Shown: piece after piece, positions 30,302 through 53,600 of the stretch
Layout: each line of letters opens with the position of its first letter
Position numbering within the stretch: position 1 is the stretch's first letter
Assembly: GCA_008632985.1 (NCBI GenBank)
Contig: QPGO01000045.1
Location: 186,001 to 250,000, forward strand
Origin: Psammoneis japonica
Taxonomy: Eukaryota
Length of the DNA: 64,000 nt
Reading direction: 5' to 3'
The notes under the pieces: model-generated
Seen by the model: only the letters and a program-made list of their open reading frames with translations
Told to the model about the DNA's origin: nothing
Databases searched by the model: none
Translations under genes and position numbers: made by a program

Positions 30302-33300
30302 TTATCCCGCGTTCACTTCAGAAAGTGTGGATGTGTTGAGAGCCTCGTTCATGGCATGACTGCTAATTACTCGTAGAGCACGTTGTCGATCTTTTCGTCC
30401 GGTTAAAATGCTCACAATGTCACGGACTCTCATTCCACTCACAGGAATCTCATCAATGGCTATCAAAATGTCAGAGGCAAACACCCATCCCGACAAGGGA
30501 CTGTCTCGTGCGACATCGCTCACTACAGCATGACCGCGATACTCAACAAACGTGACACCAATGCGACCAGGAGGAGCCGACACGACACGATGGTAGGGTT
30601 CACTTTCACTTTCGCTCCGAGGGAAAGGGGGTAGCGATGCGTTGGCCCCAAGAGGCGATGCCGGGGGCTTTAGAAATGGTGGAAGATCTTCTTGCGGCAC
30701 TGGATCGGGAAAGTTCCGAGTTTCATCGTCAAAGGACGGAGCACGAAAATCGGGGGGATGGTTCTGCGCTGGCTTTCGTCGCCCTAAAAGCCCCAAGGCG
30801 CCTCCAATCGTACTCATCAAACCGGACTGTTGTTCTTTATTACTTCGTTGACTACCGCTGCTCCGAGATATGCTGGAGCCAACACTTGCTTCGTCACCCA
30901 TCAGAGAGGAGGCAGGATGTGTTAAAAATTGATCAGCGTCATTCTCGGCTTGAGCTGTCGGTGGTTGCGACGGAACCTGGTGAGCTCGCGAAGAATTCGT
31001 AATGTGAGCAGTTATCGCACTGTGAGTAACGCTGTCGCTTCTAGTTTCGAACGATCTCGAGAAATTGCCTAAACGAAAGTACTCCGCTCCTTCCGACCTT
31101 GAGTTGTCTTCTGCTGGTTCCTCTACAACGTGATTGCTTCCATGACTTGCTTTAAAGGCCATCATGTGCTTCTTGTCAGCTCGCTGACCAGCAAAGGCAT
31201 TAGAATTAGATGAAGCCTGGGATTGATCGTCAGTGGAACCAGCTCCAGGCATGGAGGTTGAAACAGTAACTGCCATGTCATATGTTGTCATTCGATGAGC
31301 ACGCGTCGTCACGTCAACGCGAATGTCTGATCTTCTCAAGAGTAATGGCAAAAGATGCATAGAGAATCCGTCTCGCACCTGGTGGTTTAAGCTGGATATC
31401 GTTAACGGTGGTATATTCCGCGGATGTTCTCCACTCAACACTCTGTCCATCCAAGAGAGGAGTGAACTTTGCATAGAGGCATCAGAAGTCCATTGGTCCA
31501 GAAGATCTTTCACAATTGGCGAGCGCAATCCATGGTCTGGTGGAGGTGGTAGCGGTGGAGCGAGCTCGTCCCATTCTGTCGTGAAATTCTCGCCATCCAA
31601 CATGCGAACATTCACAGTTCGCTTGTCTGGAGAGTCGAAAGAAGACTCCAATGCCTGAGCACGAGTTTCTGCTTCATAGGCTTTTTGCACCGCCTCCTTG
31701 TACTCATCGAGCTCTCTTTCGAAGTCAGGATGATCTAGGGTTACAGTATGCCGCTTGGTGCTCTCTGTAGCTTCATCTGCATCCTCAGTGTCTGGTTCCT
31801 GTTTTCCGTTAGCATCGTTGGCTTGGGCTAGCGCAGCTTTTAGCAAAATAATTTCTCGCTTTGCATTCACCAGCGCTGCCCAGTCCCGCGTCTCGTCAAG
31901 AGCAGATCTCTCGGCTGCAATCTCACTCCGGAGAAACGATTCATCGAAGCTGGTAAGAGCATCTCCACTACTGCCTTCACCACTGCTCTTCAGTATTGGG
32001 CTTTCATCATCCCCAATCTCCTCAATAGCGCCACTCTCTTCCACTTTTGATGCGTCCTCTGATGATGCAGTTGAATCATCCGCGTCGAGGATAGAGCGAT
32101 CGGGAGAAGTGTATACGTGCTCTGTACGCGATGTCATCTTTAACCTACCAATCTCGGCGCGGCATTTAGAGAGCTCCTCATTCAGTCGTTGAGCAGCTTC
32201 TTCCTGTTCTCGAGACTTCAACTCCGCGGCGTGTAGCATGGCTTTCATCGCAACAAGGTCCATGTTCTCTGTTGAGACAGGACTTGCTTCCTTGCCTTCT
32301 TCTTCGGGAACAACTTCTGCTCCGACCGTTTTACTAACATTATCACCTTCCTCCTTTACCGGCATGTCTTCACGTCCAATCGAGCGAAGCCATGCTGACG
32401 CCGACGTGGCAGCTTGCTTCATTTCTGAAGCATATGTGTGGGACCGCAGCAATTCATCAACCGCCTTCATTCTTGCTTCGTGGTCAATGCGGGAAGCCGC
32501 CGTGCTTTCGCCTCCCTTCGTGTGAGTCCTGCTTATTTGGCGCAGGAGATCGATGGCCTCAAAAAGATCCGAATCACCAGAATCTGACAAAACACTTGAG
32601 CCCGCTTCGCTTTCATCTATTTGATTAGATTTCTGAATGCTTGTAGCGACGTTGCTGCGTTCTTCAATGTCTGGCGCAGTTGAAGAATCGCCAATATCGA
32701 GTGGACTAGCTTTTCCCGAATGGTTGGTCTCTTTTTCAGATGAGACAGATTGGCCACTTGCGGTTTCCTCAATGACTTCTTCACCTTTGCCTCTTTTCTC
32801 CGTGTCTTCTGCAGATGTTTTGTCATCCTTTTGAACAAAGTCCCTGCTTCGCTGAACAAGGCACGCAAGAATATCCAATGCATCCTCTCTTTCAATCTCG
32901 ATCCGATTTGGAGTACGAAGGGACACGGCGTCTCTAGAACTTAGAACAGCAGGACTGTAGGCTTTTCGCATCAGAAACCGACTTGGAGTTGTTGACTCGT
33001 CTGCTTCTGCAATGGCTTCTGAATACATGTCCGGCTGAAACATGTGTACTGCATCCGGCGCCCGAAAAGCGCTAGAGTTGGCAGTTGCGTGGAAACTCGA
33101 GCCGTTGGGACGCAAGACACGAAAGTCTCGTCTTATGAAAGGTCCAGTATGTCCAGGTACGGCCAAAACCGATGAAGCTGCATCCCAACTTTTACTGCGA
33201 TATTGACTCGCGTCCGGTCGCTCGGCTTCGGCACTTGAAGCGGACATGGAGGATGAACTCTCTCGAATTGTTCTCACATAATTCTTTCCTTCCTCAGCAG

Positions 33301-34857
33301 ACGGATCGTAAGACAAGCCTCCTCGAGCAAAACGCAACGGTGAGGAGAGGGAATTCGCATGGCGTAATCGGGTGACTTGCGGCTTCTGAGGAGAACTGAA
33401 AGCTCTATAACGAGGGGATAGCAAATGTGCATTGTAGTCGTTCCTGGCAAACTGTTGGGAACTGAAATGAGCCAAAGAGCCTGGTGAACGGAGGAGAAAA
33501 GAAGGTGGTACAGAGCTGCCGGGTCTTGGACGTGCGTAGTCTGGTCTTGGTGTGGGAGGTGTTGGTGGTGGTGCCGTTACTCCGTTTGTAGGTGTTGGAA
33601 TAGGCGTCCTCATTTGAGTCAAACTGCCAACACCGCTGCCTGCTATGCGACGAAACGCTGCTGTAACCATTGAAGATGCCGACGTTTCTGGTTGATCGTG
33701 ATCATTTTGAGGGATATTCTCGCTTGGTATTTCTGGGGCTGAATGTGCCATCTGACTCTGGTTTTCATTTGGTGGTGGACGATGGGAAGGAGAAAGCTTA
33801 AGCGGCGACGGCATCTCCGCGAGGGGATTCCTCGGACCCGGACCTTCCAAAGACGGTAGAGCAAGACCAGCAACTTCTGAAGTTAATGCAACAGACTCAA
33901 GTTCATCCGAGGCGCATTCATGGGATCGATCCGAATATTGAAGAGAAGCAAAGTCGGGCTCTTCTTTCATGGGAGTAAGGAGTGGTGCTGTCTTCGAATT
34001 CCCTTCCTCCGCTTCAACCATTGCAGCCATAGCTTGGACATCTGCTAAACGACCTGGCGCTTCAATTACTGTTCCATATTCTGATATATTCGAGTTTACA
34101 TCTGACATGGCATCATTATTCCGTCCCGCGGTTGCTCCATTTCTTTCAGCGTTTCCATTGTCAACGGCCTAATTTCTGGTACATCGTCCGAGTTTTTTCG
34201 CGATACATTGCTTTTGACTGGTGTGTCAAGACTTTCTTCATCGCGTCCCTGTTGTGAAAATTGATAACCCAACGCGGAGCTGGAAACTCCCGAACTCGTA
34301 GCAGTCAAAGCAAACGAGGATTGAGCTACATTCGATTCTGCATCCTGCGTGTCGTTCTCTGGCTCTACAGCTTTGAGACTAGGCGATGTTGTCGGGAAGG
34401 GCATTATTCGTGGCGTCACAGATGTCATACCTCCCACAAATGCTGTGGTGGATACACTTCTTTCGGGCGGGGCCGGTCTCACCATGGGCCGAGGAGACGG
34501 GGGAACTTCTGCGGTATTTTTGTTGCTACTACTGCTTGGATTTGTCAGCGGAAACGGACGAGTCGTTTTGGAAGGAGGCAAGCCTGGAGGCAATTCGTCA
34601 GGGCCATTCTCCATCTCGCTGTTAACTTCATCCGACTGCGAATACGACGTGGCACCGGTCTCTGTGTTCATACTGTCGTCAACTGGTCGAGTTGTTGTGG
34701 GCTGGGAAATCAACGAAGGAATTTGTGTAGAGCCGGAGGGTGCGTATCCTCCGACTCGATCACCGTCATACTGTTCCTCGTGTTGTTGCGGTTTCGATGT
34801 CGCTCGATTATCGTGAACGGCTGTTGTGGCTTCTGAACTCGTCGTCATGTCTTCCAT
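30302..34857 (-). CDS. Large low-complexity/coiled-coil protein with a C-terminal PDZ-like domain; probable frameshift near 34170 joins ORFs 34096-34857 and 30302-34108
   Basis: 1268-aa open frame. C-terminus VSAPPGRIGVTF...VSDVARDSPL.G.....DILIAID is PDZ-like. The upstream 253-aa ORF has similar S/T/P-rich composition and overlaps it. Confidence 0.75.
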
Positions 34858-37535
34858 GCTGTCATGGCTTGCAGCCGTTCTGGTTGTGGACGAAATGTAT
34901 CGTTGGCACCAGCATCTGTGAAACTGGGAAACAAGAGGTTCTTAACTAACCCTCCTCCCTTCTCCGTCATTGTGAAATGCTATTATCTCGATGTATAAGA
35001 AGCTTCCGACAAGAGACAACCCTCATCCGCCGGATGTTCTGTTGTTCGCGTTTGTTGGCTTCTTTTCTCATTCTGACTTCTCCGTCGGCGGCAAACCGTT
35101 GAAAGCAGTGTTCAGAGTATGGACGTGCAGCGATTTGGATACAAAAAAAAAATAATTCTAATTAACTAATACCTTGAAATACAAAAAAATTATTACAACC
35201 TTCGTAATGAAAACTAATAATGAGAAAATGAATCTACAGTACTTAAGATCGGAGAACAAAATTTTCGATTATTGAGACCTCCAGATATGATTAAAGTGAA
35301 CATACAAGTTTAAGACTGAGAAGACAAAGCGCCGAAAACCAGCAAGAACCAGCAGCTGCTGGGGCCCCAGTGGAGAGCAGAGAGTGCTAAGTAGAGAGAA
35401 CAGTGCACCGGTGTGTTGTACATGCTGTAACATGCTTGGCCAAAGTGAATATGGGTGGTGTGAGAACAAGCTGCATGCTGGCAGACTGTGTGAGAGAGAG
35501 TCAGCACCAGCACTGTCGCCACCACACAAAGCGTGCCTTGGTTGAATCGACAAATCTTGAAACAATCTCGGCTCTTCTTCATTGCTCTCCTGCTGTGGCT
35601 CTGAAAGATCAAATTCTGGTGTGGCATGAGGTGACAGCTCTCTTGTTCTGATGAGAAAAAGCAGTGCGGTGGCTCTGCTCCCCTCCTCACCCCATTGTCG
35701 ACTCTCCTCAAAAAGTTTGCCTTCTTCTTCTTCTGGTTGGCAACAACAGACGTGCTGGGCTGAAAATTTTGTGTCAACTCATGGGTCACCTGGTTTTCTG
35801 TCAAGACTGAGTCTGCTGCTGCATGTTCTGCCACTCTGAGATGCACGCAGGAGACAACAGAGAAGATCCTGAGAGGACGGCATGGTGGTGTCAAACCTCC
35901 TGGCTGGCACTCTGAGAGAAATGTTTCCACCATCAGAGCACATGGTGTTTGCAGCTTTGCTTCCTGGCAGCAAATGGCTGCCAACTCCTTGGTTGTGTGC
36001 TGAGGCTGTGAAAAAAGAGTGATCATGCTGCACAGCCTGGCCTGTTGCTCCATCAGAGAGGGGGCAGGAACAACTTCAGTGCAAGGTCACACTGGAGAGT
36101 TGAGTGCAAACCTGCATTGTGGCCCAGGTCTGCTGATTTTCAAAGTGGGTCATGTGGGTGGAAGCCAACATGTGTGGGGCCAGCAACTCCTTCATCTTGA
36201 TGAATGAGCGCCAAATCCCTCCAAGCCTTGACCACCCAGATGCATGGGTTTGTCTTCTTGTTTGCACCAAACAAGATTGACTTGATTGAGATTTTCCATT
36301 GGAGCCACCATGTCCCACTCCTTTGCAACCCTCTCAAACATTGTCACTTGTTCAAGAACCTTGTGATGGACAGCTTTCATGCACTGTCTCATGATCACAC
36401 TGAGTGCCCTTGCCTTCTGCATCTTGCAGATCCTCTCCTGTTTCACACATTGACTGCATTGCCTCCCGCAGATTGCCTTGTCCTGCTCTGATGTGGCGGC
36501 ATTGCTCAACGGATGTTTTGGCTCCTCCAGTTTTCAATCTCCTGCCTTAAAGACACCAGTGCCTCCTGCATCTCTGGCTGGAACATTCTTCCAACATGCT
36601 TGCTTGTTTTGCTCATGGTCTCTGTTCAACCATCTGCTTGTCAACCCATCTTTGCGGTGGCATCAGGCACCCACTCCTTTAAATCCATCATGCTTCCATG
36701 CTCAGCTGTGTCCTTGCCCATGTCTCTGATCCAACACAACCTTGCTGTGCCCTCTTTCAGCAGACCATTGACAACTTCCCACAGCAAGGTCCTCCAATGA
36801 TTGTCTCTTTGCCTTCATCCAGCCAGCTTGTTTGCCACAATCCACTGACATGAGTTGTTGTGCGTTTGGGTTCTTGATGGCTTCCCAACTGGCCTTTCTG
36901 GCTTCTGCACTGGGATTTCATGGCTTGCCAATTGGTGTGTGCTTGCTGGTCTCACCAACTTCCAAACTCACTGCATGGATTGCAAACACAGCCATTTTCT
37001 TCACTGCTGCAGACAATGGCAACATTTTCATGTGTTGCTCACTGCATCTTCATGGGTTTGGCAGACTTGGTGCCCTCCCAGCCTCTTGTCTTGTGCCTCA
37101 CTGTGAGTCTAGAAGGCAACGGACATTCAGGGGATCAGGGTTGGCAACTGAAGGCCTTCATGTGGAGGGCATCAACAACGATGGGAGCAATGCACATTTT
37201 TGCAAGACGAGTCACACAGTGCAAAGGACAAATCTCTGCTTTCTGTTGCTGGGGTGGGTGTGTCGGCGATTCTGAACAAGACAAGAACCACATGCATGGG
37301 TGACTTTAGAGAGCAACTGCTTTGGTCCAGGGCACTGCCACCACCTCAGCAGGACCATGCCTTGATGACATGACACAGCAATGCTGCCAAATGGGAGCAA
37401 CACAACCACACACAAATGCATCCAATGCACAGCACACACACACACACAAACATGTGTGCTCATGTGTTGCTGCTGTGACAGCAGCCAGGAAAACAGGGAA
37501 CAAATCTGTGGATGTGACTCTGTCCATTTGTCCCC

Positions 37536-37630
37536 CTTTGGCAAGTTTGGCAAGTTTGTCAACTTTGGCAAGTTTGGCAAGTTTGGTGACTTTGGTGAGT
37601 TTGTCAACTTTGCCAACTTTGTCAACTTTG
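37536..37630 (+). repeat. Short outlying array of the 9-bp satellite
   Basis: About 10 units of TTTGGCAAG / TTTGTCAAC / TTTGGTGAC. Confidence 0.9.
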
Positions 37631-38973
37631 ATGTGCTGTGTCGTGACTCACTGTGGCGAGGCAACCAACTGAAGAACTGGTCGGTCATGACCAACTCGCC
37701 GAGTCACAGAGTTCAGTGCGATTTCGCATCGTTGTGGAGGAGACATCAAGGGGAAGATTTCTGCTGTGCAACCAGAGGCATGCACTGTGTTGTGATTCAC
37801 AGTGGGTCAACCACAATGGAAGAGAACCAGTCGGTCGTGACCAACTCACCGAATCGAGGAATTCGGAAAACTCTCCAGATGCCAACAAGAAAGCAAGGAA
37901 AACACTGTGGCAATTCTCACCAGTGTCAAAAGTCCCATCTTTTTCTTTTCAGAATGGAGATGAATTTGTGTGAGCCGGATCTTGCATTTTTCAATTCGTG
38001 TGGTGTTCTCGTTGTTTAAAATGGAGATGCATCTCCAGCAGTTTTTCGCCCGCAAGGCACCGGCCATTGCCGAAATGGGAGCGACGCTGAGTTCCCCTCT
38101 CCGGTTGATGAGCTCTCATAAAGCATGACTTGGTGCAACCGAGAAGGATGATGACACTTGGAGAAAAGAAATTGAAAACTGGAAGAGCGAACGTGCATCA
38201 TTCATTGTTCATGTGCCAGCACAGCATCGCGGCACAAGTCTTGAGCTGACTAAAGACACAACAGCAATGCTCTCTAGCCACCGGCAAAAGAGAGTGCTCT
38301 TTGAGCTTGGACGTTGCTCATGACCCCTTGCAAATCTTTGCAACTGCCAGCAACTCATTGCAAACACCTTGCCTTGCTTGTTGGGCTTGAGCATCGTCAG
38401 GCGTCTCCAGTGACAAAGACTCAACAATGTGCTTTTCTGTTTTTGGTCAGTGAAATGGCTTGCCAGAATGTCGTGCGCCTCTGACTGAGACAGAATCAGT
38501 TCATCACCAGCGATGCGTGTGTCTCTCAAGGATCCGTTGAGTGGCTCTGCAGCGGCACTCACCTCGTCCAAAGACACTGACATGCAAACAACCTTGGGTG
38601 CCGATTCGTGTTCCGCCAAACTTGTCTTCGAAAGCCGGGCTGGTGAGTCAGTCAAGCTTGCTCTCAAAGCTTCACTTCCATTGCTTGAGGTTGTGTCGGG
38701 ATGGCTTTGAGAAGCAGCAGCAGATTGCAGTGGCGCACTTGCTGGTGCAATCGGTGAGAGTGAGGTGCTGTGACTGTCCACACCAATGGAGTCTTTCATT
38801 CCCTTTGTCTCTTTGGGCAAATGTTTTGCAATCCAAGCCGAAGTCACTGGAGTCCTTGGCAGTGCACTGCCAATGTTTCCTTTGCTGTGTCAAGTCGCAG
38901 ACTTGTTTGGGGTTGTCTCCAGGCAAGAAAATTGAAGAGACAGACTTTGTCAACTTTGGCAAGTTTGGTGAGT

Positions 38974-39531
38974 GGGTCTGCGGGAAATCGCAATTTTCGC
39001 CACCTGCTTGTCAAAATTGATGGAATTGCGCCTGCCAGTGCAAAATCTGTCTGACAAGACAAATTTGTTGCCAACATCACCTTGCAGAAAAGACATTTTC
39101 CAGACACAACTTTTGATGCAAAAAACTGTGTGAGACAAAGAAAGCTGTGTAAAGACCCGGATGTGTGCAATTGAAAATGTCCCAAAATTTGTGTTGTGTG
39201 GGAATGTGCCAGGCTTCTACACATGAAAGAACCCGCACGTGCATTTTTCAAAATGTGTGGCACAACTTTCAAAATGCACACCCGGGTTGCATTTTTTTGT
39301 GTGGATTTTGTGCTGGAAGTCTTGCAGGAATTCTAAAAACACCAGGATGTGCATTTTCGAAACTGCGGCACAACTTTGATTTGTGTCAAAAGTTGTGCCA
39401 AAGTTGTGTCAAAAATGTGCAAGCTCGTCATGCAGAAAAAGCACGTGTGGCTGCGCTGTTGGCATTGCAAATGGTCGAAACTCACAGAGATTCTCTGTTT
39501 TTTGCTTAAAAACACGATTTCCCACAGACCC
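38974..39531. mobile_element. Non-autonomous TIR element (MITE, PIF/Harbinger-like) inserted in the 9-bp satellite
   Basis: 17-bp TIRs GGGTCTGCGGGAAATCG (38974-38990) and CGATTTCCCACAGACCC (39515-39531) with one mismatch. AGT lies on both flanks (38971-38973 and 39532-39534). Satellite units continue on both sides. Confidence 0.8.
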
Positions 39532-41380
39532 AGTTTGTCAACTTTGGCAACTTTGGCAAGTTTGTCAACTTTGGTGACTTTGGCAAGTTTGGTGAGTTTG
39601 GCAACTTTGGTGAGTTTGGCAAGTTTGGCAGTTTGACAACTTTGGCGAGTTTGGCAAGTTTGGTGGCAACTTTTGCAAGTTTGGTGACTTTGGCAAGTTT
39701 GCCAACTTTGGCAAGTTTGGCAACTTTGGTGACTTTGGCGAGTTTGGCAAGTTTGGTGACTTGGGCAAGTTTGTCAACTTTGGCGACTTTGGCGACTTTG
39801 GCAAGTTTGGCAACTTTGGCAAGATTGGCAAGTTTGGCGACTTTGGTGAGTTTGGCAACTTTGGCAAGTTTGGTGACTTTGGCGAGTTTGGCAACTTTGG
39901 CAAGTTTGGCGACTTTGACGAGTTTGGCAACTTTGGCAAGTTTGTCAACTTTGGCAACTTTGGTGAGTTTGGCAACTTTGGCAAGTTTGGTGACTTTGGC
40001 GAGTTTGGCAACTTGGGTGACTTTGGCAAGTTTGGCAACTTTGGCGAGTTTGGCAACTTTGGCAAGTTTGGCAGTGTTGGTGAGTTCAGCAAGTTTGGCG
40101 GCAACTTTTGCAAGTTTGGTGACTTTGGCAAGTTTGTCAACTTTGGCAACTTTGGTGAGTTTGGCGACTTTGGTGACTTTGGCAACTTTGGCAAGTTTGG
40201 TGACTTTGGCAAGTTTGTCAACTTTGGCAAGTTTGGTGACTTTGGCGAGTTTGGCAAGCATGGCAAGTTTGGTGACTTTGGCAACTTTGGCGAGAGTTTG
40301 GTGAGTTTGGTGACTTTGGCAACTTTGGCGAGTTTGGCAACTTTGGCAAGTTTGGCAACTTTGGTGAGTTTGGTGACTTTGTGGCAAGTTTGGCAACTTT
40401 GGCGACTTTGGCGAGCTTGGCAAGTTTGGTGACTTTGGCGAGTTTGGCAACTTTGGCGACTTTGGCGAGTTTGGCAACTTTGGCAAGTTTGGTGACTTTG
40501 ACGAGTTTGGCAACTTTGGCAAGTTTGTCATTTTTGTCAACTTTGGCGAGTTTTGCAAGTTTGGTGACTTTGGCAAGTTTGGAACTTTGGCGAGTTTGGC
40601 GAGTTTGGCAACTTTGGTGACTTTGGCAAGTTTGGTGATTTTGGCAAGTTTGGCAAGTTTGGTGAGTTTGGCAACTTTGGCGACTTTAGCAAGTTTGGCA
40701 ACTTTGGCAAGTTTGGTGACTTTGGCGAGTTTGGCAACTTTGGCGAGTTTGGCAAGCATGGCAAGTTTGGTGACTTTGGCAACTTTGGCGAGAGTTTGGC
40801 AAGTTTGGTGACTTTGGCAACTTTGGCGAGTTTGGCAACTTTGGCAAGTTTGGCAACTTTGGTGAGTTTGGTGACTTTGTGGCAAGTTTGGCAACTTTGG
40901 TGAGTTTGGCAACTTTGGCAAGTTTGGCAACTTTGGCAAGTTTGGCGACTTTGGTGAGTTTGGCAAATTTGGCAAGTTTGGTGACTTTGGTGACTTTGGC
41001 AACTTTGGCGACTTTGGTGACTTTGTCAAGTTTGTCAACTTTGGTGACTTTGGCGAATTTGGCAACTTTGTCAAGTTTGTCAACTTTGGTGAATTTGGTG
41101 AGTTTTGTGAGTTTGTCAACTTTGGCAAGTTTGGCAAGTTTGCCAACTTTGTCAACTGTGTTGAGTGTGTCAACTTTGTCAACTTTGGCGAGTTTTGTGA
41201 GTTTTTGTCAACTTTGGCGAGTTTGGCAAGTTTGCCATTTTTTGTCAACTTTGGCAAGTTTGGCGAGTTTGTCTGCTTTGGCGAGTTTGGCAACTTTGGC
41301 AAGTTTTCCAACTTTGGCAACTTTGGTCACTTTGGTGAGTTTGGCAACTTTGGCGACTCATTTTGCAAGTTTGGCAAGTT
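39532..41380 (+). repeat. 9-bp tandem satellite of about 1.85 kb, consensus TTTGGCAA(G/C)
   Basis: Roughly 200 units with variants TTTGGCAAG/C, TTTGGTGAC/G, TTTGGCGAC/G, TTTGTCAAC. Confidence 0.97.
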
Positions 41381-41399
41381 GAGCAAGGCATGCACAGCC

Positions 41400-44300
41400 A
41401 GCTGCAGTTGATGCCAATGAGCTGGAAGATCTTCTGCAGCATTTCCGGGTCATCAACATCATGCATGAGCTGTCCCAAGTGCAGTGTGGTCTGCACAGGG
41501 ACCAGCGATGACTTGGAGAATGGTTGACAGCACACCAGCCATGCAGCAGCTCTTGTCAGAAAAGGGTGCTTCTGACAAAGAAGCAGCTGAGAGACATGGA
41601 CAGAATGAGGCAGGTTGGGATCAATCGGACGAGACATGTCATCTGCCAGCCCATTCTTTTCACCAGCCAAATTGCCACTTGGGAATTGATGCCGACACCC
41701 CCACAAAGGCAAAGCACAGACCAAATGCACAAATGCCATTGTCGTTGAGGAGAGCTGGCAGTGCCCAGATTGCATCAACCAGAGCTGACCACATTGTCAA
41801 CTCGGTTGAGGTGGATCAAATTTTTGGGGGCCCATGGGGAAAGAGGGAGGCCACCAGTTCCAGATCCATGGATGTGCTGACAGATTTCACGAAAGTGACC
41901 GTGCCTGCAAGCAGGAGGAGGGCAACAACAAAATTGAGAGCATTGTCAGAAACCTGTCCTTGGGGCCATGAGAACAAGGTCAAACCTGAGCTTGCCATGG
42001 GGCTCCACATCACAAGGAACCAAAGTTGAAATTCCTGGCAGCAACTGCCACCACCAAGTTTTCTTGCATCACCAATTCCTTGGCAGTGCAGATCACATGG
42101 GACAATGGCCTCAATCTTTGTCACAAAAGAGTGTGGAGTGCTTTTGGCACAGCCCAAAAGACAGAAAATGGACGAGCAAAATTCAGGAAACACTGCCGTC
42201 TTGAGATGCAGATGATGTGCGAACTGTGCCTTTCCCCTGGCAATGATGTTTGGGAGATGATGAACCAACTTGTGTGGGAGTTGGTCACAAACCTGCTGCT
42301 CATGCCCTTGCCATTGCAGGGTCTGCTTGGCAACATGGCACTGAACCGTCAAATTGCAACAAAGAGCACCCTGAAAAACAAAAAACCAACACCAAAGTGT
42401 GCCGATCATGCCAAAAGCATGATGCTCCAAAATGCCATTCAAGGTTGCCACCTCCAAGAGGAGGCACTCAATCTTGGGCTTCCAATCGTAAAGAACAAAG
42501 ATGATCTTGTCAAGCTTGTGATCCACAATCCCAACAGTCAAAGAGCGGGTGTTGTGTGAGCACCCAAGAAGCTTGCAAAGGAAAGACAGGATGAGGTGAA
42601 GCTTTTTCAAGCTCAAGGCATTCAGGACTTCATCCTGTGGAAAGCTGTGCAACACATGAATGGCAAAGGCACTTGCAGACATGGTGTGTGCCAAGAATTG
42701 TGCAACATCAGCTTGCAAGTTGTTGTCCACCTGATGCTTGTGAATTGGCAAAATTTCACAGTCCTTCCTGGAGAATTCCAGGGTTCAAGGAATCTGGGAG
42801 CACACAAGAAAACGCCTGTGCCCACCTTGGATGGAGTCAGCTGCGATGGAAACTCAATCCTTGGAAGGAATGGGTGCGTGATCTTGACAACATTTGAGAC
42901 ACAAAATGCATGCTGCGCAAGCTGCTGATGGCATTGCGACCATCCATCACTCCAATTGTGCAGGTCAGGGGTGTCCCCAAAACTGCAACCAAGTTGAGCC
43001 ACAGCTGTGCTGGACCAACGCATGCATCCCAGCCAGGTTTGGGTTGCATTTCATCATGCAGCAAGCTCCAGTGGTGTCATTGTCAATTGGGTGGATCTCC
43101 TGAGATGGACAATTGATCCGTGCATTCCAGATCCAATGCACAACATCAAGCTCCTCCACAGCTTTGGAGCACTCCGGCTTGTGCTCCAGTGACAAAAAGT
43201 TGTTGAAGGCCATGGACAAAGGCTTGGGTTGGAACGAGCTGTCCAAAACTGGTCAAGGCTGCTTGAACAATTTGTCAATGTCAACCAAGCTCTGAGGTGA
43301 CAGATGACAGTTCAAAACACATGGTGTCAATTGTTGGTCAAAAATGAGAACAAAACTCTGCTTGGAGTCCTTGACAAGAGCCTTGCAAGTTTTCTCTGGA
43401 TCAACACAAATGGGCAGTTTGTTCCTTCAGTTAAAACAGTCTTGAAAATTTTCTTCTGTGTGTTGCGCCCATTGCAGCAGGCTGGAACGCCATCTTGGCA
43501 GATGCAAGCAATGATCTTGACAGCAACAGGATCAACTTTGCCATCAAGATGATGTGACACAATGCGCTCAATGTTCCGATGTGCTCAAGCATGTGGGCCA
43601 CCAACCCATTGCACCAATGAAGCCATGTCTCTGTCAAAATGGAGCAATCCTGCCAAGGTCTGACAAACACGTGTCTTGTTGAGGTCTGACTCTTGTTCCC
43701 ATCCCAAAGGGTGCCCTTGGAGAGAATTAAAGTCAACATTGTTGTGCTCACAAAGAAGGGCATGCAAACAGAAAGCATCGGGTGTCACACAACATGGATC
43801 CTCCCAATTGTTGACCACACACTGCCAGAGTCAAAGGATGGCATCTCTTGGGGAACAGAGTGCAGGAAACCCAACTTCCAAAGGGGCAACAAGACATGGC
43901 AAAAAAAACAGCTTCAGACACAAAGTTTCTGACAAGCATTGTCCTTGCCAAAAGGTTGGTCCAGTTGGGGCTGAACACAAAGTGACAACTGAGTCCTGAT
44001 GAACTCTTCACACTCAGCTTTCTTGAATGAGTTGCCAATTGTCAGGATGAGCTGAGAGGAAGAGCCTCCAGTCACCACAGGGGAAAGGACCGGGCAGAAC
44101 TCCTCAATCTCTTCAGAGGCAACTGGCGGGACATCAGGCACATTTTTGGCACACCAAACCAAGTGATGCAGACTTGGAAAATTCTGCACCCTGGGGCAAG
44201 GGGGGCACACCTTCATCCACAGGGACACCAATGTGGCCTGGGGACAAAGTGCTGCCAATGGTGAACAGCCAGTGGATGTTTCCAAATGAAACAAATGCGC

Positions 44301-44600
44301 CAGTTTCATCTGAGACAAAACCAACAAGAAGACACACCAGCAGGACCTTTCCCAGGTGCAAAAGAAAGATTTTCCATCTTCTCCTCAAAGTCAACCAACT
44401 CGGCACACACTTTGCTCCAGGGAGAGCACAAAGATGGTGACACGCGGCTTCTTGCATCTGGGACGGTTACAATGAAAGCCACAAGTCAAAAAATGAGCAC
44501 AAAGGCACTCTTCAGACGTTGAGTCAGAGTTCTTCTTAGCCACAACTGGGATGTTGTGAGTCTGGTGGGAATCATCAGAGATGACAAGCATGCCCATCTT
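41400..44600 (-). mobile_element. Heavily decayed DIRS-order retrotransposon RT/RNase H relic
   Basis: Minus-strand fragments HWIWNARINCP, DNDTTGACCMMKCNPNLAGMHA, GCSFGDTPDLHNW (RT-like) and NLAGEKNGLADDMSR (RNase H-like) are in the expected order. Boundaries are approximate. Confidence 0.6.
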
Positions 44601-46135
44601 CTTGATGAGCTCAATCTCATCTGCAGACAACAATGACTTGGATTTCTCACTGGGTGAAGCAGCTCCAGTTGTCAACGGCAATTCAGCGAATTGCTTGTTT
44701 GAAGAAACATTCAAGTTGGCAATGTTCCATTTCTTGCTTGCTTCAATGCCTCACTTGTCCTTGCACAGTGTTTTCCAGCACTGTGCTGTGCCAGCACACA
44801 AAAGTCCTCCTGCAGTGTCCTTGTTGCTTTGTGCTCTGGCATGTCTCTTGTTTTGTTTTGTGCAGCAGAGCATTTTGTTTTTTTGGAGCCAAGCAAGTCA
44901 GCCTGTTGAGCCATCTGGTGTCATGCAGCCATTTTCAGTTTTTAAGCTGTTTTGTTTGTGCCCATTCTTGTGGAGATTTGTGGCTCAAATCCTGTCAGCC
45001 AAATCACACACATGATCTTGACAAACAAAAGATGAGTCAAATCTTTTGAAAGTTTTGAGCTGAGCATGGTGCCTGCTGCCTCTGTGTCCAAAAACAACTC
45101 ATGCTTTGGCTTTTGTGACACAAAAGTGCTCTTGTGAAAAGAAATTGCAGATGTGCTTGTGGCTGCTCAATTGCCAGTCAGGCCAATTTGTCAAAAAGCA
45201 GACTGCTGAAGAAACCCAAGAGAACACAAAACAACAACAACATGACAAAGCATGGGGAAGTCTGTTTTTTGTTTGTTCTTGCTGGTGCTGGGAGAACTCA
45301 ATTGTGGCCTGGTGTCAGAGAGGTGGATTTGGAGGTGAGTGGCCAAGCAGGCAACAAGCAGGTTGTCCAGGCCACAGCATCATTCCCACATGCACAGAGG
45401 GGGGGGGGGGGGACAAAAGAAGTGGTGTTGGCCCAGCCAATGCCACAGCACCTGCAAACAAGGCACCTCTGCTGCTCCTGCTGACCAGGCTCCTGCAACC
45501 CCATCTCTGGCACAGGAGGCCCTCAGCTTCTTAAGTGTCACATGACAAAATGTTGTTGTTCAACACCCACAAGCTTGCCAAAGCATTGCAGCAGCAGCAG
45601 CAAGCCCTTTGTGCATTTGATCCCTCTGCACAGCTCCCCCCCCCCCCCCCTGTGTTGATCATGTGGCTTCTAGCAAGAGGTTGTGAGCAGCATGTGAGTT
45701 GTCAACCAGTCAAGGTGCATCCTCATGAGACATGCCAAAAATGTGCTCTCTCATGCAATTGAAAGTGCCATCATGGAGGCACTCACCCAGCTGATTTGTG
45801 CAAAGCATCTGCTCACCTGCCTCTTTCAGGGTTGTCATGATGATCTCATGTCCGTGGAATTCCCATGCTGCCTCAACCAAAACAATGAAGCCAACTGCAT
45901 TGCCCAGGTTGACTGCAGTCTTGTGAACAAACACTGTGTGGCCAACTGCACACAGGCACAGGCAGCACTCCTCTACACTGGTGTGCCACAAGGCCAAGTG
46001 CTCCACAAAGGATGCCAAATGTTTCCTTCATCATCTCATGTGACACCATCCCTGCACGCAACAAGAGCTTGGGTGTGACCCTCCATGTTCCTGGCAACAT
46101 TTCTTCAGGGTTTGAGTTGGCACTTGTTTTTGCCA

Positions 46136-46195
46136 AAGTTGAGTCTGCCCAGTCCAGACAGACAAAAGTTGAGTCTGCCCAGTCCAGACAGACAG
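46136..46195 (+). repeat. 30-bp tandem duplication
   Basis: AAGTTGAGTCTGCCCAGTCCAGACAGA occurs twice, 30 bp apart. Confidence 0.85.
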
Positions 46196-47669
46196 ATGCT
46201 GAGCATGAAAAAAATGCAAGTGAGTGAACCCCTTCCTCATCATCCAGTGATGAGCTGCAACTCATGGTGCAGAGTGTGATGTGATGCACACCAGCACAGC
46301 ATTGCACTCAAAGTGGGGTGAGTGCACAAAAGGTGTTTGAGCTCTCTCATGAGCACATTTGACAGCACAGCACCCACTGCACCCACTGCACCCCCCCTGG
46401 CTCTGCCAGCATGCACAAGAACAGCCCAGCAGGTGGCATGAGCCAAATGCAAATTTTCCTGCATCAACTGGGTGAAAAGCCCATGAACTCTTCCTCTGGA
46501 GGGGAACACAGAGAGAGAAGCAGCAGATGCATTCCAGCCCTGGGCAGGATTGTGTGCAACATTGGGCCCGCAGAATTCTGTGTGCAAGCTCCACAGCAAA
46601 AACATCAAGCAATGAACATGTGAGTCATCGCCAACAGAAAAAGAGGCCATTTTGTGAATGTGCCTCCTCCTCCACACTTCAAGCATGTTGCTTGAAGTTT
46701 GCCCTGGGGTTGCATTCTTCAGACATCAAAGAATGTGCCCGGCTTGCAACTTGCTCCAGATTTGGGTGGGCCCACATGAAAAAATGTGCCCATTTTTGCA
46801 TGAAACATGCGGTCTAAACTTGTGGCACCATTTTTGACAGTTGCAACACAGTGATTTGCATGTGTCATCATGGCAGCACAAATGCACACAAAAATGTCTT
46901 GTGCATGCACCCATGCATTCGAAGCTGAGGATGGACTGAGTTTTTGATCACCAAATGGTGCCGCAAGATGAGAGCTTGGTTTTCCAATGAGCAATTTATG
47001 ACTGCATTCGTGTGATTCAAACACACAAAGCAAATGTTCTCATGCACAAACTGGCCCTTCAATGGACAATTAAAAGTGTGTTTTGTCAACATGCTTTGAC
47101 CAGATTTGCCCTCAAGAATGGATTCAATGACACATGCATTGCTTGCAAAGTGTGAGAAGACACAAGAAGAAATGAGTCCCAGCTCACACCCTGACATCAA
47201 CTTTGGACCCTTTTACAATGATTTGTGGATGTGAGCAACTGAAACACTTGCATCAGTTGATGACATGGAGGGAACACACATGGCAGTGGAAAAGAATTTG
47301 TCTGCAGAAGCAAGCTGCAAATGAAATGAAACCAAGTTACAGTTGATGACAGATTGGTCTTTTTTTGCTCTGATTCAGCCTGCAACAAGCATTTTCATCA
47401 ATGTCGTTGATGCCATGGAGCCACACAAAATGCTGCTGTCATCATCATGTTGTTCAATTTCCTGCAAGGTTGAAAAAAGTGGGCCATCATGGCGCTGAAA
47501 GCCACGGCCATTTTGGCCATTGCTTGGTTCAAATTTCACCCAGTCATTTAATTCCCAGTGCATGAACACAACAACAATTGTGTGATGTCATCGACATTGA
47601 ACAAAGCATGAAATGTTTGTTTTTTGTGCCAAAACGGGCATGTGCGCTCCACCCAAGTCTGGAACATGT

Positions 47670-47990
47670 CCCATTTTTGTGCTCATGGATGGAGAAAATG
47701 GAGAGCTTTGGCTTTGCAAAACAGGGAGCACGGGACAATTTTGCAGAAAATCACACGTCAAAATGTGCGTGCATGGCATGCAACAAGATCCAAAAAACTG
47801 TTGATGTCACAGCTGAGCAATGCAAGGTCTTGCCTGGAGAGTTGGAGAGCACATCAGCAGGGACAAGAAGCTGTTGCTCCCATCTCTGCAATCTGCAACA
47901 TGTTTTTGCAATTGATGGGAGAAAATCAACCAAGAACAAAACTTTTGCACCTGTGGTTGGTGTGCTCTCCACAGGCCAGCATCAGAGCAC
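47670..47990 (+). mobile_element. Possible Ty1/copia RT N-terminal relic
   Basis: Order KVLPG...SHLC...KTFAPVV resembles copia VLP..W...KARLC..G..Q.....TFAPVV; very degraded. Confidence 0.4.
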
Positions 47991-48090
47991 GCAACACAGT
48001 GATTGAGCATGCCTGTCTCACAGTGATTTTTTGTGCCATTTGTTTTAAAATTTTTGTGCTGTGATTGGAGACTAGTTGCACACATGGTTG

Positions 48091-50122
48091 TCACATGTCA
48101 ATTGTGACAGTTTGACAAATTGCTGCTGTGGGATTTCTGCCCCCCTCCGTCTGCAGGGGAAATTTCAAACCACTGCGAAACATCCACTTCTCTTCCACAG
48201 CTGTGAGCTTGCGGACCCTGCATCCCCACAAAATGTGCAAACCAAAAGCACTCCATTCATCCCTTTTTTGTTGATTGTCAAAGTCAAACGCAAACTGAGG
48301 GGCATTCTCTTCTCCAAAAAGATCTGTCAATGCTTTGATGTTGAGATCAGAATTGCCGTCACTGTCCGCTGACACGGAAGCCGATGTCGTTACAAGATGG
48401 AATTTTGGTGTCTTGTCCTCTGAATTCGCCGTCACGAACAGCACATGACGCTTGCCACCATGAAATGTAGAGTCGTCGTCGCAAGTATAAATCATGATGT
48501 CATTGCCACACTCGTCTTGAACCATCGAGTGCTTTTGGAAATTACATCTTAGGCGGAAAGCATCAATCAGGGTCGAGACGCTGCACACGATTTCGAGTTG
48601 TCGACTCCGACGTAAACTCTTCTTCCTTGAGAGCTCTCCCAAGGAATAATGGGGCGAGCGCATTCAGCAACCCACCCATTCTTGACAAGCAAATGTTGCA
48701 GCAATGGCGAACGTGTCGGACGACTTGTGCTGCTCTGTCCTTAATGCTATACACGCCATTCTGAAGTCGATTGAAGTTTTTTTCGAGGAAACTCTTATTC
48801 GACTCTCTGCATCGCTCGCAGTCGCCGCATTGGTGGCAGTCTCCGCATCGCTCGCCTTCTGCAAATCGCTTGACTTGATCAAGCCAATCAATCAGTGGTT
48901 CATCGTCAGAAGGTTCGAAATATTGCTGGGTTGCCACAAATTCACCACGAACAGTCTTAATGATCCGTCTGGAGGCCTGAAGCTTGAAAATAGACATCGT
49001 CTCGAGAGACTGGATGGCATCGGACGATGGTTCGAATCCCCGAGTCTTGCATGCCTCCACGATCGCCGCAGTATCTCCAATGCTGTTACTCTGGTCCGTT
49101 GAAAGCAAAATAAATTCCAGTTCAGAGAAAGCTCTCAAATCAACCTTTGCCAATTGCCGCAATGGTGCCATGAGCCAAGGATCTTCAACACGGTTGATAC
49201 TACTGTCTTTGTCGCATTCGTCGTCGTCGTCTTGATCCACAATGGAGTCCTCGTCAGTTCTGGGGCGCTTGGATGGTGGTGGAGAGACAAAATTGTTGCC
49301 TTCACGGGTGCCTGCATCATCACTGTCAGAATCAAGATCCATGGCGCTTGAGTCTGGCTCAAACAGCAAGTTGCTATCCCTCAAAATTGTCCGAAGCTCG
49401 TCTGCAACACGCTCCATGTCTTCAGGATGGTCAAAAAAATCCGAGAAACCTTCTGCTATTATCGGTAGATCTTTTTCCTGAAATTGAGTGGCTTCCATGG
49501 TGGACTCCGCTTGTGCCCAAGCAAGCCAACCAGCCTCTCGTCGAGCTTTTGTAGTAGGGTCGTTGATCCACCGACTACGACCACGAACATGCTCACATAT
49601 CGAGTGCTGAGTCCTCATTAGAAGTGGACTCTCCCCAAATTGGAAATACCTGGGTCTGGCTTTGATGGTCTTTCCATTTACATTCATGAAGTTTTCTTTT
49701 GACCCATATTGTTGCACCGACCACGAAAATGTTGGAAACCTATCCTGCGTTGCCCGTAGGACTGCTCCCAGCCGCTCCCTCGCCGTCTCCTCTGCGGTCG
49801 CTTCCATGCCAATTTCACGAACCAATACAAGCTCATGCAACCACCATTTTCGATTTATGTTTTTTAGCCTTTTTATAACCGCCGGCTTTAACTCAGCGGG
49901 TGTCGAAAATCCGGCGTATGAGTGGTTGATGAAGACTCGGCACGTGACATGGCCGTCACGAACGACTGAATCGGCATGTTTGTCAACAGCTCGCCACAAA
50001 ATCAAAATCGTGGAGAACGTATTTAGATACCTATCCAACAGATACTAATTGATTATATGCCAAATACGTTCTCGCAGAATCGAAGGTTTAGATAACTTTC
50101 TTAGCGTCGCAATCATCACCAT
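48091..50122 (-). pseudogene. Disrupted gene of unknown function (in-frame TAG near 50045, frameshift near 48565, 3' end decaying into the TpA-free block)
   Basis: The 491-aa ORF extends in frame to an ATG at 50122 across a single TAG. A protein-like continuation lies in ORF 48091-48663. Cys cluster CGDCHQCGDCERC...HCCNIC. Confidence 0.6.
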
Positions 50123-50677
50123 CGTCGGTACGAGATTTGATCAAATTCCCCGCGATAGCACCGCGGTGTTTCACGCAGTGGGCGCGCGCGCGATCCGCGG
50201 CCGCGAACCGGAATTCATCCTGGAATATATATCTTAGAGTTTTAACATTTAAATAACTTCATTTTCCATAAATCCATGACGTCATAAAGTTCGTTGGAAT
50301 CCGAGCGCTTCATCAGCAATCATCTTCACTCTCACTCACAAAAACCACGACACTCAAATCGCTTTGCCGTTGTCGTTGTTGTTGCTGCTGATACGAGTGT
50401 AAGTGCGACTCTTTGCATCTTCGTCCCGTTTGATGCTTATCGTTGATTTTCTTATTCTTATCTAATGAAGCCGTTGTTCTTTGTATAGTGTACAACTGCA
50501 GGGAAATCAGCTTGACGCACACGGTTTTTGAAACACATCAGCTAAAAGCACGTCTCCGTCGGCACCGTTTGAGGTAAGAGTCGCTTTGTCTCGCAATATT
50601 CGATTATGACCAACGATCCTTCTAATGTCTATTGTTTCAATCTTTGCAGTTTGTATCACTAGAAGATACGGAGTGAT

Positions 50678-53600
50678 ATGAAGTTCACGGTTCCACCAGA
50701 TACGCCGGCAAAAAAACCGCCTCAGCTCCATCAACATTCAAAAGCAAACCGGGATCTATTTGAGCGAACACATGGAATGATTGCGGGTTTATCGAGAGAA
50801 CATGCAGCAAGCAACCAGTCTGGTGCTACTGCTGCCGCCGAACTGAACAGAACTACGACGGTCAATACGAAGCATTCTTCTTCGCAAGGAGGTCCGCTTC
50901 GAAGCATCCATGACCGTAATCAACGTCCTCCAAGACAACAGCAAGTATTGTCTCGTGGCTCTGTGCCCTCTGCTCCTCGAAAGCAACCCGCTGCCAATCC
51001 TCAGCAGCAACTGAACGAGATCAAGACGGTGAGGAAGAATCTGCATCCGACGAACAATGGAAATCTACCAATTGCACACGACGGGCTCGTTCCGTTTTGG
51101 AGACGGCGGAAGAATCGGTACCAGCCCTCGAAGTTGCTCACCGGGCACAGGCGCAGAAAAGCTGCCTTGTTGGCTTTGGACAGTGAAAACAAGAGTAGCA
51201 TCAGACCGGGTGTGACAGGGACTGAAACGCAAAAAGCTCCGGTTTTCAGAGATAGTTCATCTGCAACCGAAACAACGGAGTCTGGTGTGGAGCGCAAGGC
51301 GAGAACGAACGCCCATGATTGTAGCACGGCAAATGCAAGCTTTCCTTCCAGGAAGGACATTGTTTCTCAGAACAAGGAAGTTTCTGCAGGAAACTGCAAT
51401 GATCCGTCGGCAACTCCTTTGACGGCTTCTGGAACNNNNNNNNNNNNNNNNNNNNNNNNNNNNNNNNNNNNNNNNNNNNNNNNNNNNNNNNNNNNNNNNN
51501 NNNNNNNNNNNNNNNNNNNNNNNNNNNNNNNNNNNNNNNNNNNNNNNNNNNNNNNNNNNNNNNNNNNNNNNNNNNNNNNNNNNNNNNNNNNNNNNNNNNN
51601 NNNNNNNNNNNNNNNNNNNNNNNNNNNNNNNNNNNNNNNNNNNNNGAAGGATGGAGTCTGGCTGTCCGGAAACAAGAGACATGAGATCAAGAGAATTATG
51701 GACCGTACAACGACCAAACGACAGAAGATCTCTCGTGGCCAAGATGTTGCAGCTGCCACCGTTGTCATGCTAGACGCGAACACAACTGAAAAGCCCAGGG
51801 AGGCTTCCAATGGATGTCTAGAACCAGCCGAAGTTTTACCGGGCAAACCGAGCGGAGCGCTGTTAGCGAAAGTATCTGCTACAGTTGGGAGAGAGGGTGA
51901 CGAAGCTGAAGGACGTGAAGGGGATAACGCCACACTACCACCCTCAAACCGAGACGGATCACCCGCTGAAGAGTGCAACATGCCAGGCGTCGATTCCTTC
52001 TCCGGGCCCGACAGCAATGGCAAAACTCAGCTAGATGTCAACGGATCTGTCAAACCAGGCAACAACGGTGATGCATTTCCAGAAGATTGTGGACCTGGTA
52101 AGCCAACGAGCGAAGTTTCCGTTGTTGAATCATCAGAGCCCACCACAACCACCCAGCACACCGCTGAGCCTACCACCATTGGCGCGATGGAGGCCACGAA
52201 TGCGAACGACGACTCAAAAACGAAACGGCACTCGGCAGTCCACACCAACAACGAATTGGAGTTTGCTGGGGGGGGTGTAGAGGCCGCTGCAAACGCGGAA
52301 AAGGGTGCGATTGACGGAACGAAAAAGAATGTAAGTCCATTTCGGATCTTGATTTCTTTTCAAGGATGATGTTCTCTCATTAAATTCGGTTATTTCTGCC
52401 TTTCAGGTTTCGATGAACGATGGGGCGGTCGCTCACTCCAACCTTCGAACCAGGAACAACGACGATATTGCGATCGACGTAGCTGGCACAGAGGAGTTGC
52501 TGGCTGCGACGGTTGTTGGGGCGGTCGCTCTTAACGAGCTGGGAACCGAGAGCACCGACGAATCGCCTTTGTCAGAAGCGAGTGCCGACAACAATGAAAT
52601 CGTCGAAGCAACGACTGGCGACAAGGTCGCTCACGCAAACCCCGGCAACAGGAGCAACTTTGATGGTGGAGCAATCGAGGCCGGACGAACTGGTGAGCTT
52701 GTCGTGGCGACCAAGCAGGGCAGAAGCGAACGGGGTCGAGTTTCCTTGGAAGCGCCTTCTGCCAAGCATGGTTCTGGCAAACAAGACCAAGCTTCCTTGG
52801 CAACACCTCGTGCTGTAACGGGGGGTGCCACGGACGATAGAGATGACAAGCACACCACACGTAGAAACGGATCTCACTCTGATACAACCCCTACAATCAC
52901 TGGGGACGATGCGAACGGCGACACGAGAAAGAAATGCCCCCCTGGAGGCGTCCCAACGACCGAAATGGAGAACACTACGAAACGGCACCCGACAGTCCAC
53001 ACCAACAACGAATTGGAGTTTGCTGGGGGGGATGCAGAGGCCGCTGCAAACGTGGAAAAGGATGCGATTGACGGAACGAAAAAGAATGTAAGTCCATTTC
53101 CCGGATCTTGATTTCATTTCAAGGATGATTTTCTCTCATTAAATTCGTGTATTTCTGTCTTTCAGGTTTCAATGAACGATGGGGCGGCCGCTCACGCCAA
53201 CCTTCGAACCAGGAACAACGACGATATTGCAATCGACGTAGCTAGCACAGAGGAGTTGCTGGCTGCGACGGTTGTTGGGGCCATCGCTCTTGATGAGCTG
53301 GGAGCCGAGAGCACCAACGAATCGCCTTTTTCAGAAGCGAGTGCCGACAACAATGAAATCGTCAAAGCAACGACTGGCGACAAGGTCGCTCACACAAACC
53401 CGGGCACCAGGAGCAACTTCGATGGTGGAGCAATCGAGGCCGCACGGACTGGTGAGCTTGTCGTGGCGACCAAGCAGGGCAGAAGCGAACGGGGTCGAGT
53501 TTCCTTGGAAGCGCCTTCTGCCAAGCATGGTTCTGGCAAACAAGACCGAGCTTCCTTGGTAACACCTCGTGCTGTAACAGGGGATGCCACGGATGATAGA

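Follow-up and report, generated by a model that had tools for sequence, protein, structure and literature searches.

So far, one preprint of 2026 is the only source on hypermutation aimed at the TpA dinucleotides of foreign DNA, and it concerns one chlorarachniophyte, Bigelowiella natans (Mettrop et al., bioRxiv 10.64898/2026.01.13.699255). According to this preprint, 231 of the 302 nuclear mutations detected in mutation-accumulation lines of B. natans lay in two integrated viral regions (nucleocytoplasmic large DNA virus, NCLDV, and virophage), and 230 of these 231 were A>G or T>C changes, all at TpA. The rate reported for these regions was about 6e-7 per site per generation, approximately 1000-fold over background, and it was observed in some lines only. 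The same source describes 124 TpA-poor, CpA- and TpG-rich clusters in the B. natans genome with an enrichment of retroelement domains among TpA-poor sequences, and proposes, as a hypothesis, an ADAT2-like DNA adenosine deaminase as the agent. DNA activity has been reported for amphioxus BjADAT2 (PMC10354150) and, as cited in the preprint, for Trypanosoma ADAT2. The main text of the preprint mentions neither a sequence context beyond TpA, nor CpG, nor diatoms, and when we searched full texts for a precedent, in diatoms or elsewhere, this preprint alone was found. Here we describe a stretch of 64,000 nucleotides (contig QPGO01000045.1, positions 186,001 to 250,000, recorded as Psammoneis japonica; hereafter the window, in which all coordinates are given), where TpA has been nearly erased from two large blocks and depleted in a PAT/DIRS-like retrotransposon. 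The TpA-hypermutation in the window is a further case of the kind described once, in the 2026 account of B. natans. We consider it probable that bounded foreign or repetitive DNA was hypermutated in place, specifically at TpA and from A:T to G:C, with a slower decay of CpG on top. The author of an earlier note on this DNA knew of no described mechanism of this type in diatoms; the process has since been shown experimentally in B. natans by the preprint, and for diatoms nothing was found in the searches made.

The affected parts of the window are the following.

35,451-48,390, unstranded: main block, TA-erased, CpG-poor and CA/TG-rich; 31 TA against 880 expected (35,450-48,370); a mosaic, mostly multi-copy.
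58,680-64,000, unstranded: second TA-erased block, truncated by the window end; 21 TA against 334 expected.
58,700-59,600, unstranded: sub-block with TA lost and much CpG kept; TA observed-to-expected ratio (O/E) 0.10, CG O/E 0.70, GC 0.575.
1-700, unstranded: TA-poor block that opens the window, most of its CpG retained; 4 TA in 700 nt.
20,308-23,247, plus strand: PAT/DIRS-like tyrosine-recombinase retrotransposon, recognised by split direct repeats and by homologues of the proteins P0005 and P0006.

The near-erasure of TpA that the earlier note had reported at 35,300-48,370 and at 58.7-64 kb was borne out by counting. The first of these intervals (13,071 nt) contains 37 TA where base composition predicts 889 (O/E 0.042), with 190 CG (O/E 0.25) and an excess of TG (O/E 1.71) and CA (O/E 1.83), and the interval 58,700-64,000 contains 21 TA for 334 expected (O/E 0.063), with O/E values of 0.39 for CG, 1.78 for TG and 1.66 for CA. 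The reduction of CpG (O/E 0.25-0.39) and the enrichment of TG/CA (O/E 1.66-1.83) were thus also as described. In a 1-kb profile, TA O/E was 0.00-0.06 in twelve consecutive intervals from 36,001 to 48,000 and 0.01-0.10 in five consecutive intervals from 59,001 to 64,000; over both runs CG O/E was 0.02-0.59 and CA/TG O/E 1.54-1.94. The flanking intervals gave TA O/E of 0.31-0.79 and CG O/E of 0.73-1.39 (1-1,000 and 21,001-23,000 left out), in agreement with the claim that neighbouring sequence has ordinary TA. The statement that TA is absent from 41,401 to 42,488 proved exact, as the first TA is found at 42,489, the single one in 41,000-42,600.

The block borders are sharp. At the left edge of the main block ordinary TA ends at 35,450 and the next TA is at 36,548, and at the right edge internal TA ends at 48,073, the next one is at 48,391, and from there on TA and CG are dense. 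The second block starts between 58,675 and 58,751 and continues past the window end. On the plus strand CA and TG are about equally frequent, which shows that both strands are affected.

The composition of the blocks, with a 9-bp satellite excluded, was compared with 38 kb of flanks. TA was 3 per kb in the blocks and 39 in the flanks (a loss of 36), CG was 14 and 56 (a loss of 42), and CA, which equals TG, was 111 and 72; the gain in CA plus TG, 78 per kb, is the same as the combined loss of TA and CG, also 78. GC was 0.482 in the blocks compared to 0.477 in the flanks, and the remaining six symmetrised dinucleotide classes moved by at most 13 per kb.

The direction of the change could be followed in the retrotransposon, which carries two pairs of direct repeats.

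20,308-20,456 and 22,925-23,073, plus strand: repeats A1 and A2, 98% match.
22,771-22,925 and 23,093-23,247, plus strand: repeats B1 and B2, 96% match.

Their order is A1 ... B1 A2 B2, which we take to be the layout of PAT/DIRS-like elements. P0005 has seven homologues, one of them with RVT_1, and residues 19-207 of P0006 match 1,580 proteins, its frame being broken past residue ~207. Among the Atlas clusters nearest to P0014, a homologue of P0006, several carry Phage_integrase on 18-44% of their members, and the nearest recorded Atlas clusters of the retroelement family are from diatoms and oomycetes. The element's own open reading frames (ORFs) in the window gave no match reaching the Pfam threshold. 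An assembly gap (a run of N) at 21,216-21,217 lies within the first ORF of the element; another is found at 51,436-51,645.

The interior of the element (20.6-23.0 kb) has a TA O/E of 0.21 and a CG O/E of 0.86. The repeat copies of DIRS/PAT elements start out identical. In 304 aligned nucleotides the outer and inner copies showed nine differences, each a T of the outer copy that is C in the inner one. Of the 11 TA, 7 had become CA; none of 18 CG, 15 CA or 15 TG had changed, and no TA was private to an inner copy. This difference between inner and outer repeats indicates that the change post-dates the formation of the repeats and that the outermost ~150 bp at each end were spared.

A comparison with related metagenome loci pointed in the same direction. 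TA O/E was 0.38-0.90 in 80 such loci and in none as low as the 0.21 of the element. The closest relative, L001, has 75% amino-acid identity, a GC of 0.595 and a TA O/E of 0.87. Its 35 aligned TA correspond in the window to TG at nine sites, to CA at eight and to TA at three, and the reverse was absent, as no CA or TG of L001 is TA in the window; other L001 dinucleotides were retained at 47-61%. The three conserved Tyr columns of the recombinase all read otherwise in the window (TGT, TGC and CAC), with Cys at these columns in 0 of 60 homologues; one lost Tyr is that of the GEY motif, conserved in 53 of the 60. Conserved F columns of the recombinase were kept in 10 of 11 cases, and a column of the P0005 family with Tyr in 7/7 is CAC in the window. 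The Tyr to His or Cys relics of the earlier note are therefore present in the retroelement at 20.3-23.2 kb, and were not found in the span for which they had been proposed, where 217 ORFs gave no credible Pfam hit. Another relative of the retroelement, L006 (a metagenome contig of 1,852 nt), has O/E values of 0.38 for TA, 0.48 for CG and 1.47 for CA/TG; judged by these ratios it would be a milder form of the double signature in another genome.

The loss of TA is separate from the loss of CpG and much faster per site, because TA is depleted with CpG kept in the sub-block at 58,700-59,600, in the retroelement and in the interval 1-1,000 (TA O/E 0.17, CG O/E 0.78). A second process, distinct from CpG decay and turning TpA into CpA or TpG on both strands, had been inferred in the earlier note, and the mass balance, L001 and the repeat pairs all support it. 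Within the sub-block, the paralogue pair 58,981-59,092 and 59,243-59,356 differs at 23 positions, 19 of them transitions and 13 within steps from one pyrimidine-purine (YR) dinucleotide to another. CpG survival in the blocks was 0.14-0.26 where the flanking bases are A or T and 0.47-0.54 where they are G or C.

The survival of TA depends on the flanking bases. Counts over both strands are given below as blocks/flanks, with 45 residual TA sites in the saturated blocks, followed by the ratio per kb.

ATAT 0/244, ATAC 0/234, GTAT 0/234 and GTAC 0/208: ratio 0.000 each.
TTAA 28/122: ratio 0.585.
CTAG 12/146: ratio 0.21.
CTAA and TTAG 8/130 each: ratio 0.157.
Mixed context classes: ratio 0.015-0.09.

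RTAY (R, purine; Y, pyrimidine) goes first and fully, YTAR is resistant, and TTAA for the most part escapes. Seen on a single strand, the order of loss is T-A-Y > T-A-G > T-A-A. In a one-strand model, the A of T-A-N has relative hazards of ~9:8:3:1 when N is T, C, G or A, respectively; these are rough values derived by hand from the survival ratios. The model fits most classes, and for CTAC it predicts 0.055, where 0.048 was observed. Similarly, 17 of the 20 residual TA of the retroelement have a 5' pyrimidine, and the share of RTAY among TA sites is 11/37 in L001 and 1/20 in the window element. Strand-coordinated tracts of CA or TG were not detected at saturation, as runs tests gave z of -1.9 to +0.5 and the CA-TG imbalance had a bin variance of 0.75-1.03 in the blocks, no higher than the 1.55-1.60 of the flanks. 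This absence of tracts agrees better with a large number of separate events at single sites than with a small number of sweeping ones.

Additionally, we compared the window with X1, a public run that contains 66% of the sampled words of the window. Its contigs diverge by ~1% from the window in the single-copy flanks, from which it follows that X1 is another strain; its even depth of ~50 suggests short reads. The TA-free sequence is reproduced by X1 contigs at 35,811-36,335 (525 nt, 4 differences), 44,758-45,412 (662 nt, 4 differences) and 47,254-47,722 (471 nt, 2 differences). Over all places compared, 717 transitions and 171 transversions separate the X1 copies from the window. The site-level differences that follow are examples from 40 listed differences of 899, and do not form a spectrum. 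Those in YR steps of the single-copy part of the main block were TA/TG at 35,451, CA/CG at 35,521 and CG/TG at 35,846, and a double difference TG/CA was found at 35,534-35,535; at 49,466-49,619, the window has TA and all X1 contigs have CA or TG at 6 of the 7 differences listed. Such YR-step differences hint at recent activity. In the single-copy flank at 33,000-35,300, 3 of the 5 listed A>G/T>C differences from X1 are at TpA (33,149, 34,118 and 35,235). This hints that TpA transitions are perhaps common outside the blocks too, with numbers too few to say.

The earlier note had regarded the process as targeted to repeats, and the X1 depths, which are rough sums over contigs, do not show this. 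Summed depth was 100-9,500 over most of the main block and ~50 in single-copy flanks. However, the stretch 35,450-36,170 at the start of the main block is single-copy (depth 48-73) and affected, whereas the neighbour at 48.4-52 kb is multi-copy (depth 146-767) with ordinary TA, so that repetition would be neither necessary nor sufficient.

48,391-50,200, minus strand: TA-normal multi-copy neighbour; X1 depth 284-767, TA O/E 0.41-0.67.
39,534-41,358, unstranded: 9-bp satellite TTTGGCAAC and variants inside the main block, ~201 copies (Tandem Repeats Finder).

The neighbour contains P0004, an intact ORF of 493 codons at 48,566-50,044. A shorter TTTGGCAAC array is found at 37,536-37,630. The dinucleotide signature of the block holds with the satellite removed; the satellite translates as Gly-X-Y-like repeats, which give false collagen hits in Pfam. 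X1 depth reaches 1,500-5,000 over the two arrays, and the highest summed depth, ~9,500 where single copy is ~50, was found at 46,314-46,947, a very abundant short repeat family. A minus-strand open frame of 190 codons at 48,094-48,663 spans the right border of the main block (~48,390); this border may lie inside a unit and not at its end. Just outside the left edge of the second block there is a CpG- and TA-rich tandem array with a period of 30-31 bp (58,355-58,537).

One affected unit is thus a retroelement, and the searches made found no Pfam family, no homologue of P0001 and no viral relative for the large blocks. The 217 stop-to-stop ORFs (94 of at least 90 aa and 123 of 55-89 aa) gave no credible Pfam family, and a relaxed Pfam scan of P0001, P0004, P0005 and P0006 gave nothing usable. 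P0001, the longest block ORF (322 aa), and P0004 had no homologues within the searched length range, and scans of viral contigs with both proteins found no relatives. When the window was compared with itself, in plain and in purine/pyrimidine letters, the satellite was the only part of the main block for which paired copies were found. A tandem repeat at 52.2-54.0 kb was rejected, as it consists of repeated exons of what looks like an ordinary gene. It has a period of ~757 bp (52,177-54,005) with an intron in each unit (GTAAGT...TTTCAG), and its copies are 91% identical in plain letters and 98% in purine/pyrimidine letters, which means that almost every difference between them is a transition, often at CpG.

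In the mechanism that we propose, the A:T pair of TpA would be converted to G:C at the level of DNA, giving TpG or CpA depending on the strand attacked. The targets would be silenced DNA, foreign or repetitive, in stretches with definite borders. In the window, the changes are transitions that lie almost wholly at TpA and arose after integration. The change of CpG to TpG or CpA would be a second, slower process, presumably deamination of 5-methylcytosine, that catches up in older blocks. A polynucleotide adenosine deaminase of the ADAT2/TadA type, making inosine in DNA, is a candidate agent that we put forward tentatively, at somewhat less than even confidence. The outcome would be permanent inactivation, with Tyr codons turned into His or Cys codons, including that for the GEY Tyr of the element's own recombinase; signals that contain TA (TATA, AATAAA) would be lost as well.

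Among the other explanations, an artefact of sequencing or base calling on modified DNA had already been raised in the earlier note. The library type of X1 is absent from its record, but the TA-free sequence recurs, at a depth of 50-115, in contigs of this ~1%-diverged strain, so that both data sets would need the same error, and the protein changes agree with family alignments; an artefact is extremely unlikely. Blocks descended from GC-rich, CpG-rich and inherently TA-poor foreign DNA, with CpG decay alone since then, could come close to the observed composition: when all CpG of sequence like 21,001-22,000 (GC 0.595, 6 TA and 76 CG per kb) are turned into TG/CA, GC becomes ~0.52 and CA/TG O/E ~1.9, near the values of the blocks. 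That template is, however, itself derived and TA-depleted, for L001 has a TA O/E of 0.87 at equal GC and 17 of its 35 TA are CA or TG in the window. Furthermore, neither the 80 related loci nor any flank interval, TA-poor blocks aside, fell below a TA O/E of 0.31, the blocks stay at 0.03-0.06 despite differences of up to 15% among their copies, for the most part transitions, which should regenerate TA, and the residual TA obeys a strict flanking-base rule. We judge an ancestral composition of this kind to be very unlikely. Error-prone patch repair of the DNA polymerase eta type at WA motifs (W, A or T), a candidate of the earlier note, would be set off by T:G mismatches from deaminated 5-methylcytosine, and the CpG decay that co-occurs in older blocks would suit it. 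It is contradicted by AA/TT, which WA includes and which is not depleted in the blocks (O/E 1.24, compared to 1.14 in the flanks), and by the loss of TA where CpG is intact (7/11 TA and 0/18 CG changed in the repeat pairs), and is hardly credible here.

Editing before integration, in which the RNA or cDNA of a retroelement is edited in the manner of ADAR or APOBEC and then inserted, has in its favour that one affected unit is a retroelement. Yet the inner and outer repeats of one insertion differ and its outermost ~150 bp escape, a satellite and a single-copy stretch are affected as well, and both strands are hit equally. ADAR prefers a 3' G, and the greater resistance of TAG than of TAY is opposite to this. 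The mutations of B. natans, moreover, are described as arising in place in single-copy integrated DNA (10.64898/2026.01.13.699255), and we regard editing before integration as highly improbable in the window. A different target, thymine instead of adenine, is a somewhat more serious possibility, although still an unlikely one: an oxidase of the TET/JBP type would make 5-hydroxymethyl- or 5-formyl-uracil at TpA of silenced DNA, a base which mispairs with G and leads to T>C. Thymine modification with a preference for TpA is known in dinoflagellates and trypanosomes. The data are strand-symmetric, the context is captured no less well by R-T-A (T>C) than by T-A-Y (A>G), and the nine repeat-pair differences are all T>C on the sense strand. 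The preprint favours, as a hypothesis, adenosine deamination in B. natans (10.64898/2026.01.13.699255).

Several points weigh against in-place TpA hypermutation by an adenosine deaminase, or against parts of it. When the CA/TG excess was regressed at context level on the losses of TA and CG, R2 was ~0.01, a poor fit that we attribute to neighbouring sites altering one another's context. The mass balance could be partly coincidental, depending on the ancestral composition of the main blocks; for these blocks, which have neither an outgroup nor an intact copy, the case would be made by composition, variation against X1 and analogy with the retroelement. In the repeat pairs, the direction assumes that the copies were identical at integration, a premise from the DIRS/PAT literature, and all nine differences lie on one strand (p ~0.004). 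The context rule accounts only partly for this one-strand pattern of CA and not TG; 6 of the 7 changed TA have a 3' purine. The rule can be read equally well as R-T-A for an attack on thymine, which leaves adenine and thymine unseparated as targets, and the missing library type of X1 belongs here too. Finally, for BjADAT2, so far the one ADAT with a context reported for the deamination of A in DNA, the preference found in E. coli DNA is for GAA when A is edited and TCG when C is edited, and not for TA (PMC10354150); given this preference, one cannot take an ADAT origin of the TA rule for granted.

If TpA-specific hypermutation in place is accepted, the window shows the process at completion, apparently in a different host. 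The saturated end state and the retroelement target are new beyond B. natans as described in the preprint, and new constraints are set by the flanking-base rule, the absence of strand-coordinated tracts, a speed above that of CpG decay, and borders just inside the terminal repeats of the retroelement. More tentatively than for the agent, we suggest that the same TpA-editing defence may operate in at least two distant branches of the stramenopile-alveolate-rhizarian (SAR) group, a rhizarian alga and a probably stramenopile host, and may be ancient and widespread. Its enzyme would prefer R-T-A-Y and largely spare TTAA, act in place on chromatin domains that end ~150 bp inside element termini, and inactivate invaders faster than the decay of methylated CpG. 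If this is true, the enzyme, be it a DNA adenosine deaminase or a thymine modifier, could be recognised by the fingerprint of this four-base rule. In practice, repeat annotation fails on such DNA for want of any recognisable Pfam family. With TAA and TAG removed, gene callers will predict long spurious ORFs, and the detection of horizontal transfer from dinucleotides would misread such blocks.

Among the known systems, deamination of 5-methylcytosine accounts for the CG to TG/CA half of the signature and cannot remove TpA, whose loss comes before that of CpG and is faster. The process resembles fungal repeat-induced point mutation (RIP), as it is transition-only and dinucleotide-specific and permanently cripples invaders within bounded regions. 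However, RIP changes C to T at CpA and so creates TpA, whereas here TpA is destroyed and CpA/TpG are gained; RIP lowers GC, whereas GC is 0.482 in the blocks and 0.477 in the flanks. RIP also needs duplication, although it can reach unique DNA beside repeats; here the single-copy stretch 35,450-36,170 is affected and the multi-copy sequence at 48.4-52 kb is spared, as far as the rough depths tell. In the hypermutation of retroviruses, retroelements and RNA viruses by APOBEC3 or ADAR in animals a host deaminase, which is putative here, likewise mutates parasitic nucleic acid with a preference for neighbouring bases. These enzymes act on cDNA or double-stranded RNA before or outside integration and with a strand bias, whereas in the window both strands of integrated DNA carry the changes. 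A 5' U is favoured by ADAR, and unlike for ADAR a 3' G is disfavoured here relative to a 3' pyrimidine. ADAT2/ADAT3 and TadA have a built-in preference for a 5' T or U, as A34, their natural substrate, follows U33.

B. natans itself as the host, in which case the finding would not be new, is unlikely: compared to B. natans, whose genes are intron-rich, the flanks in the window have long uninterrupted ORFs of up to 1,268 codons. TpA makes up 3.9% of the flank dinucleotides here and 6.0% genome-wide in B. natans, and TA O/E is 0.03-0.06 in our saturated blocks and 0.45 in the NCLDV region of the alga (10.64898/2026.01.13.699255). Here the process struck a satellite, other repeats and a retroelement of the tyrosine-recombinase type, and no viral genes were found, unlike in the viral regions that the preprint describes, and both the CpG decay and the flanking-base rule (RTAY lost, TTAA spared) go beyond its main text. 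With the system described there, the window shares A>G and T>C changes at TpA that yield TpG or CpA depending on the strand, the confinement to bounded DNA as far as the sharp borders tell, and the fact that single-copy DNA can be a target.

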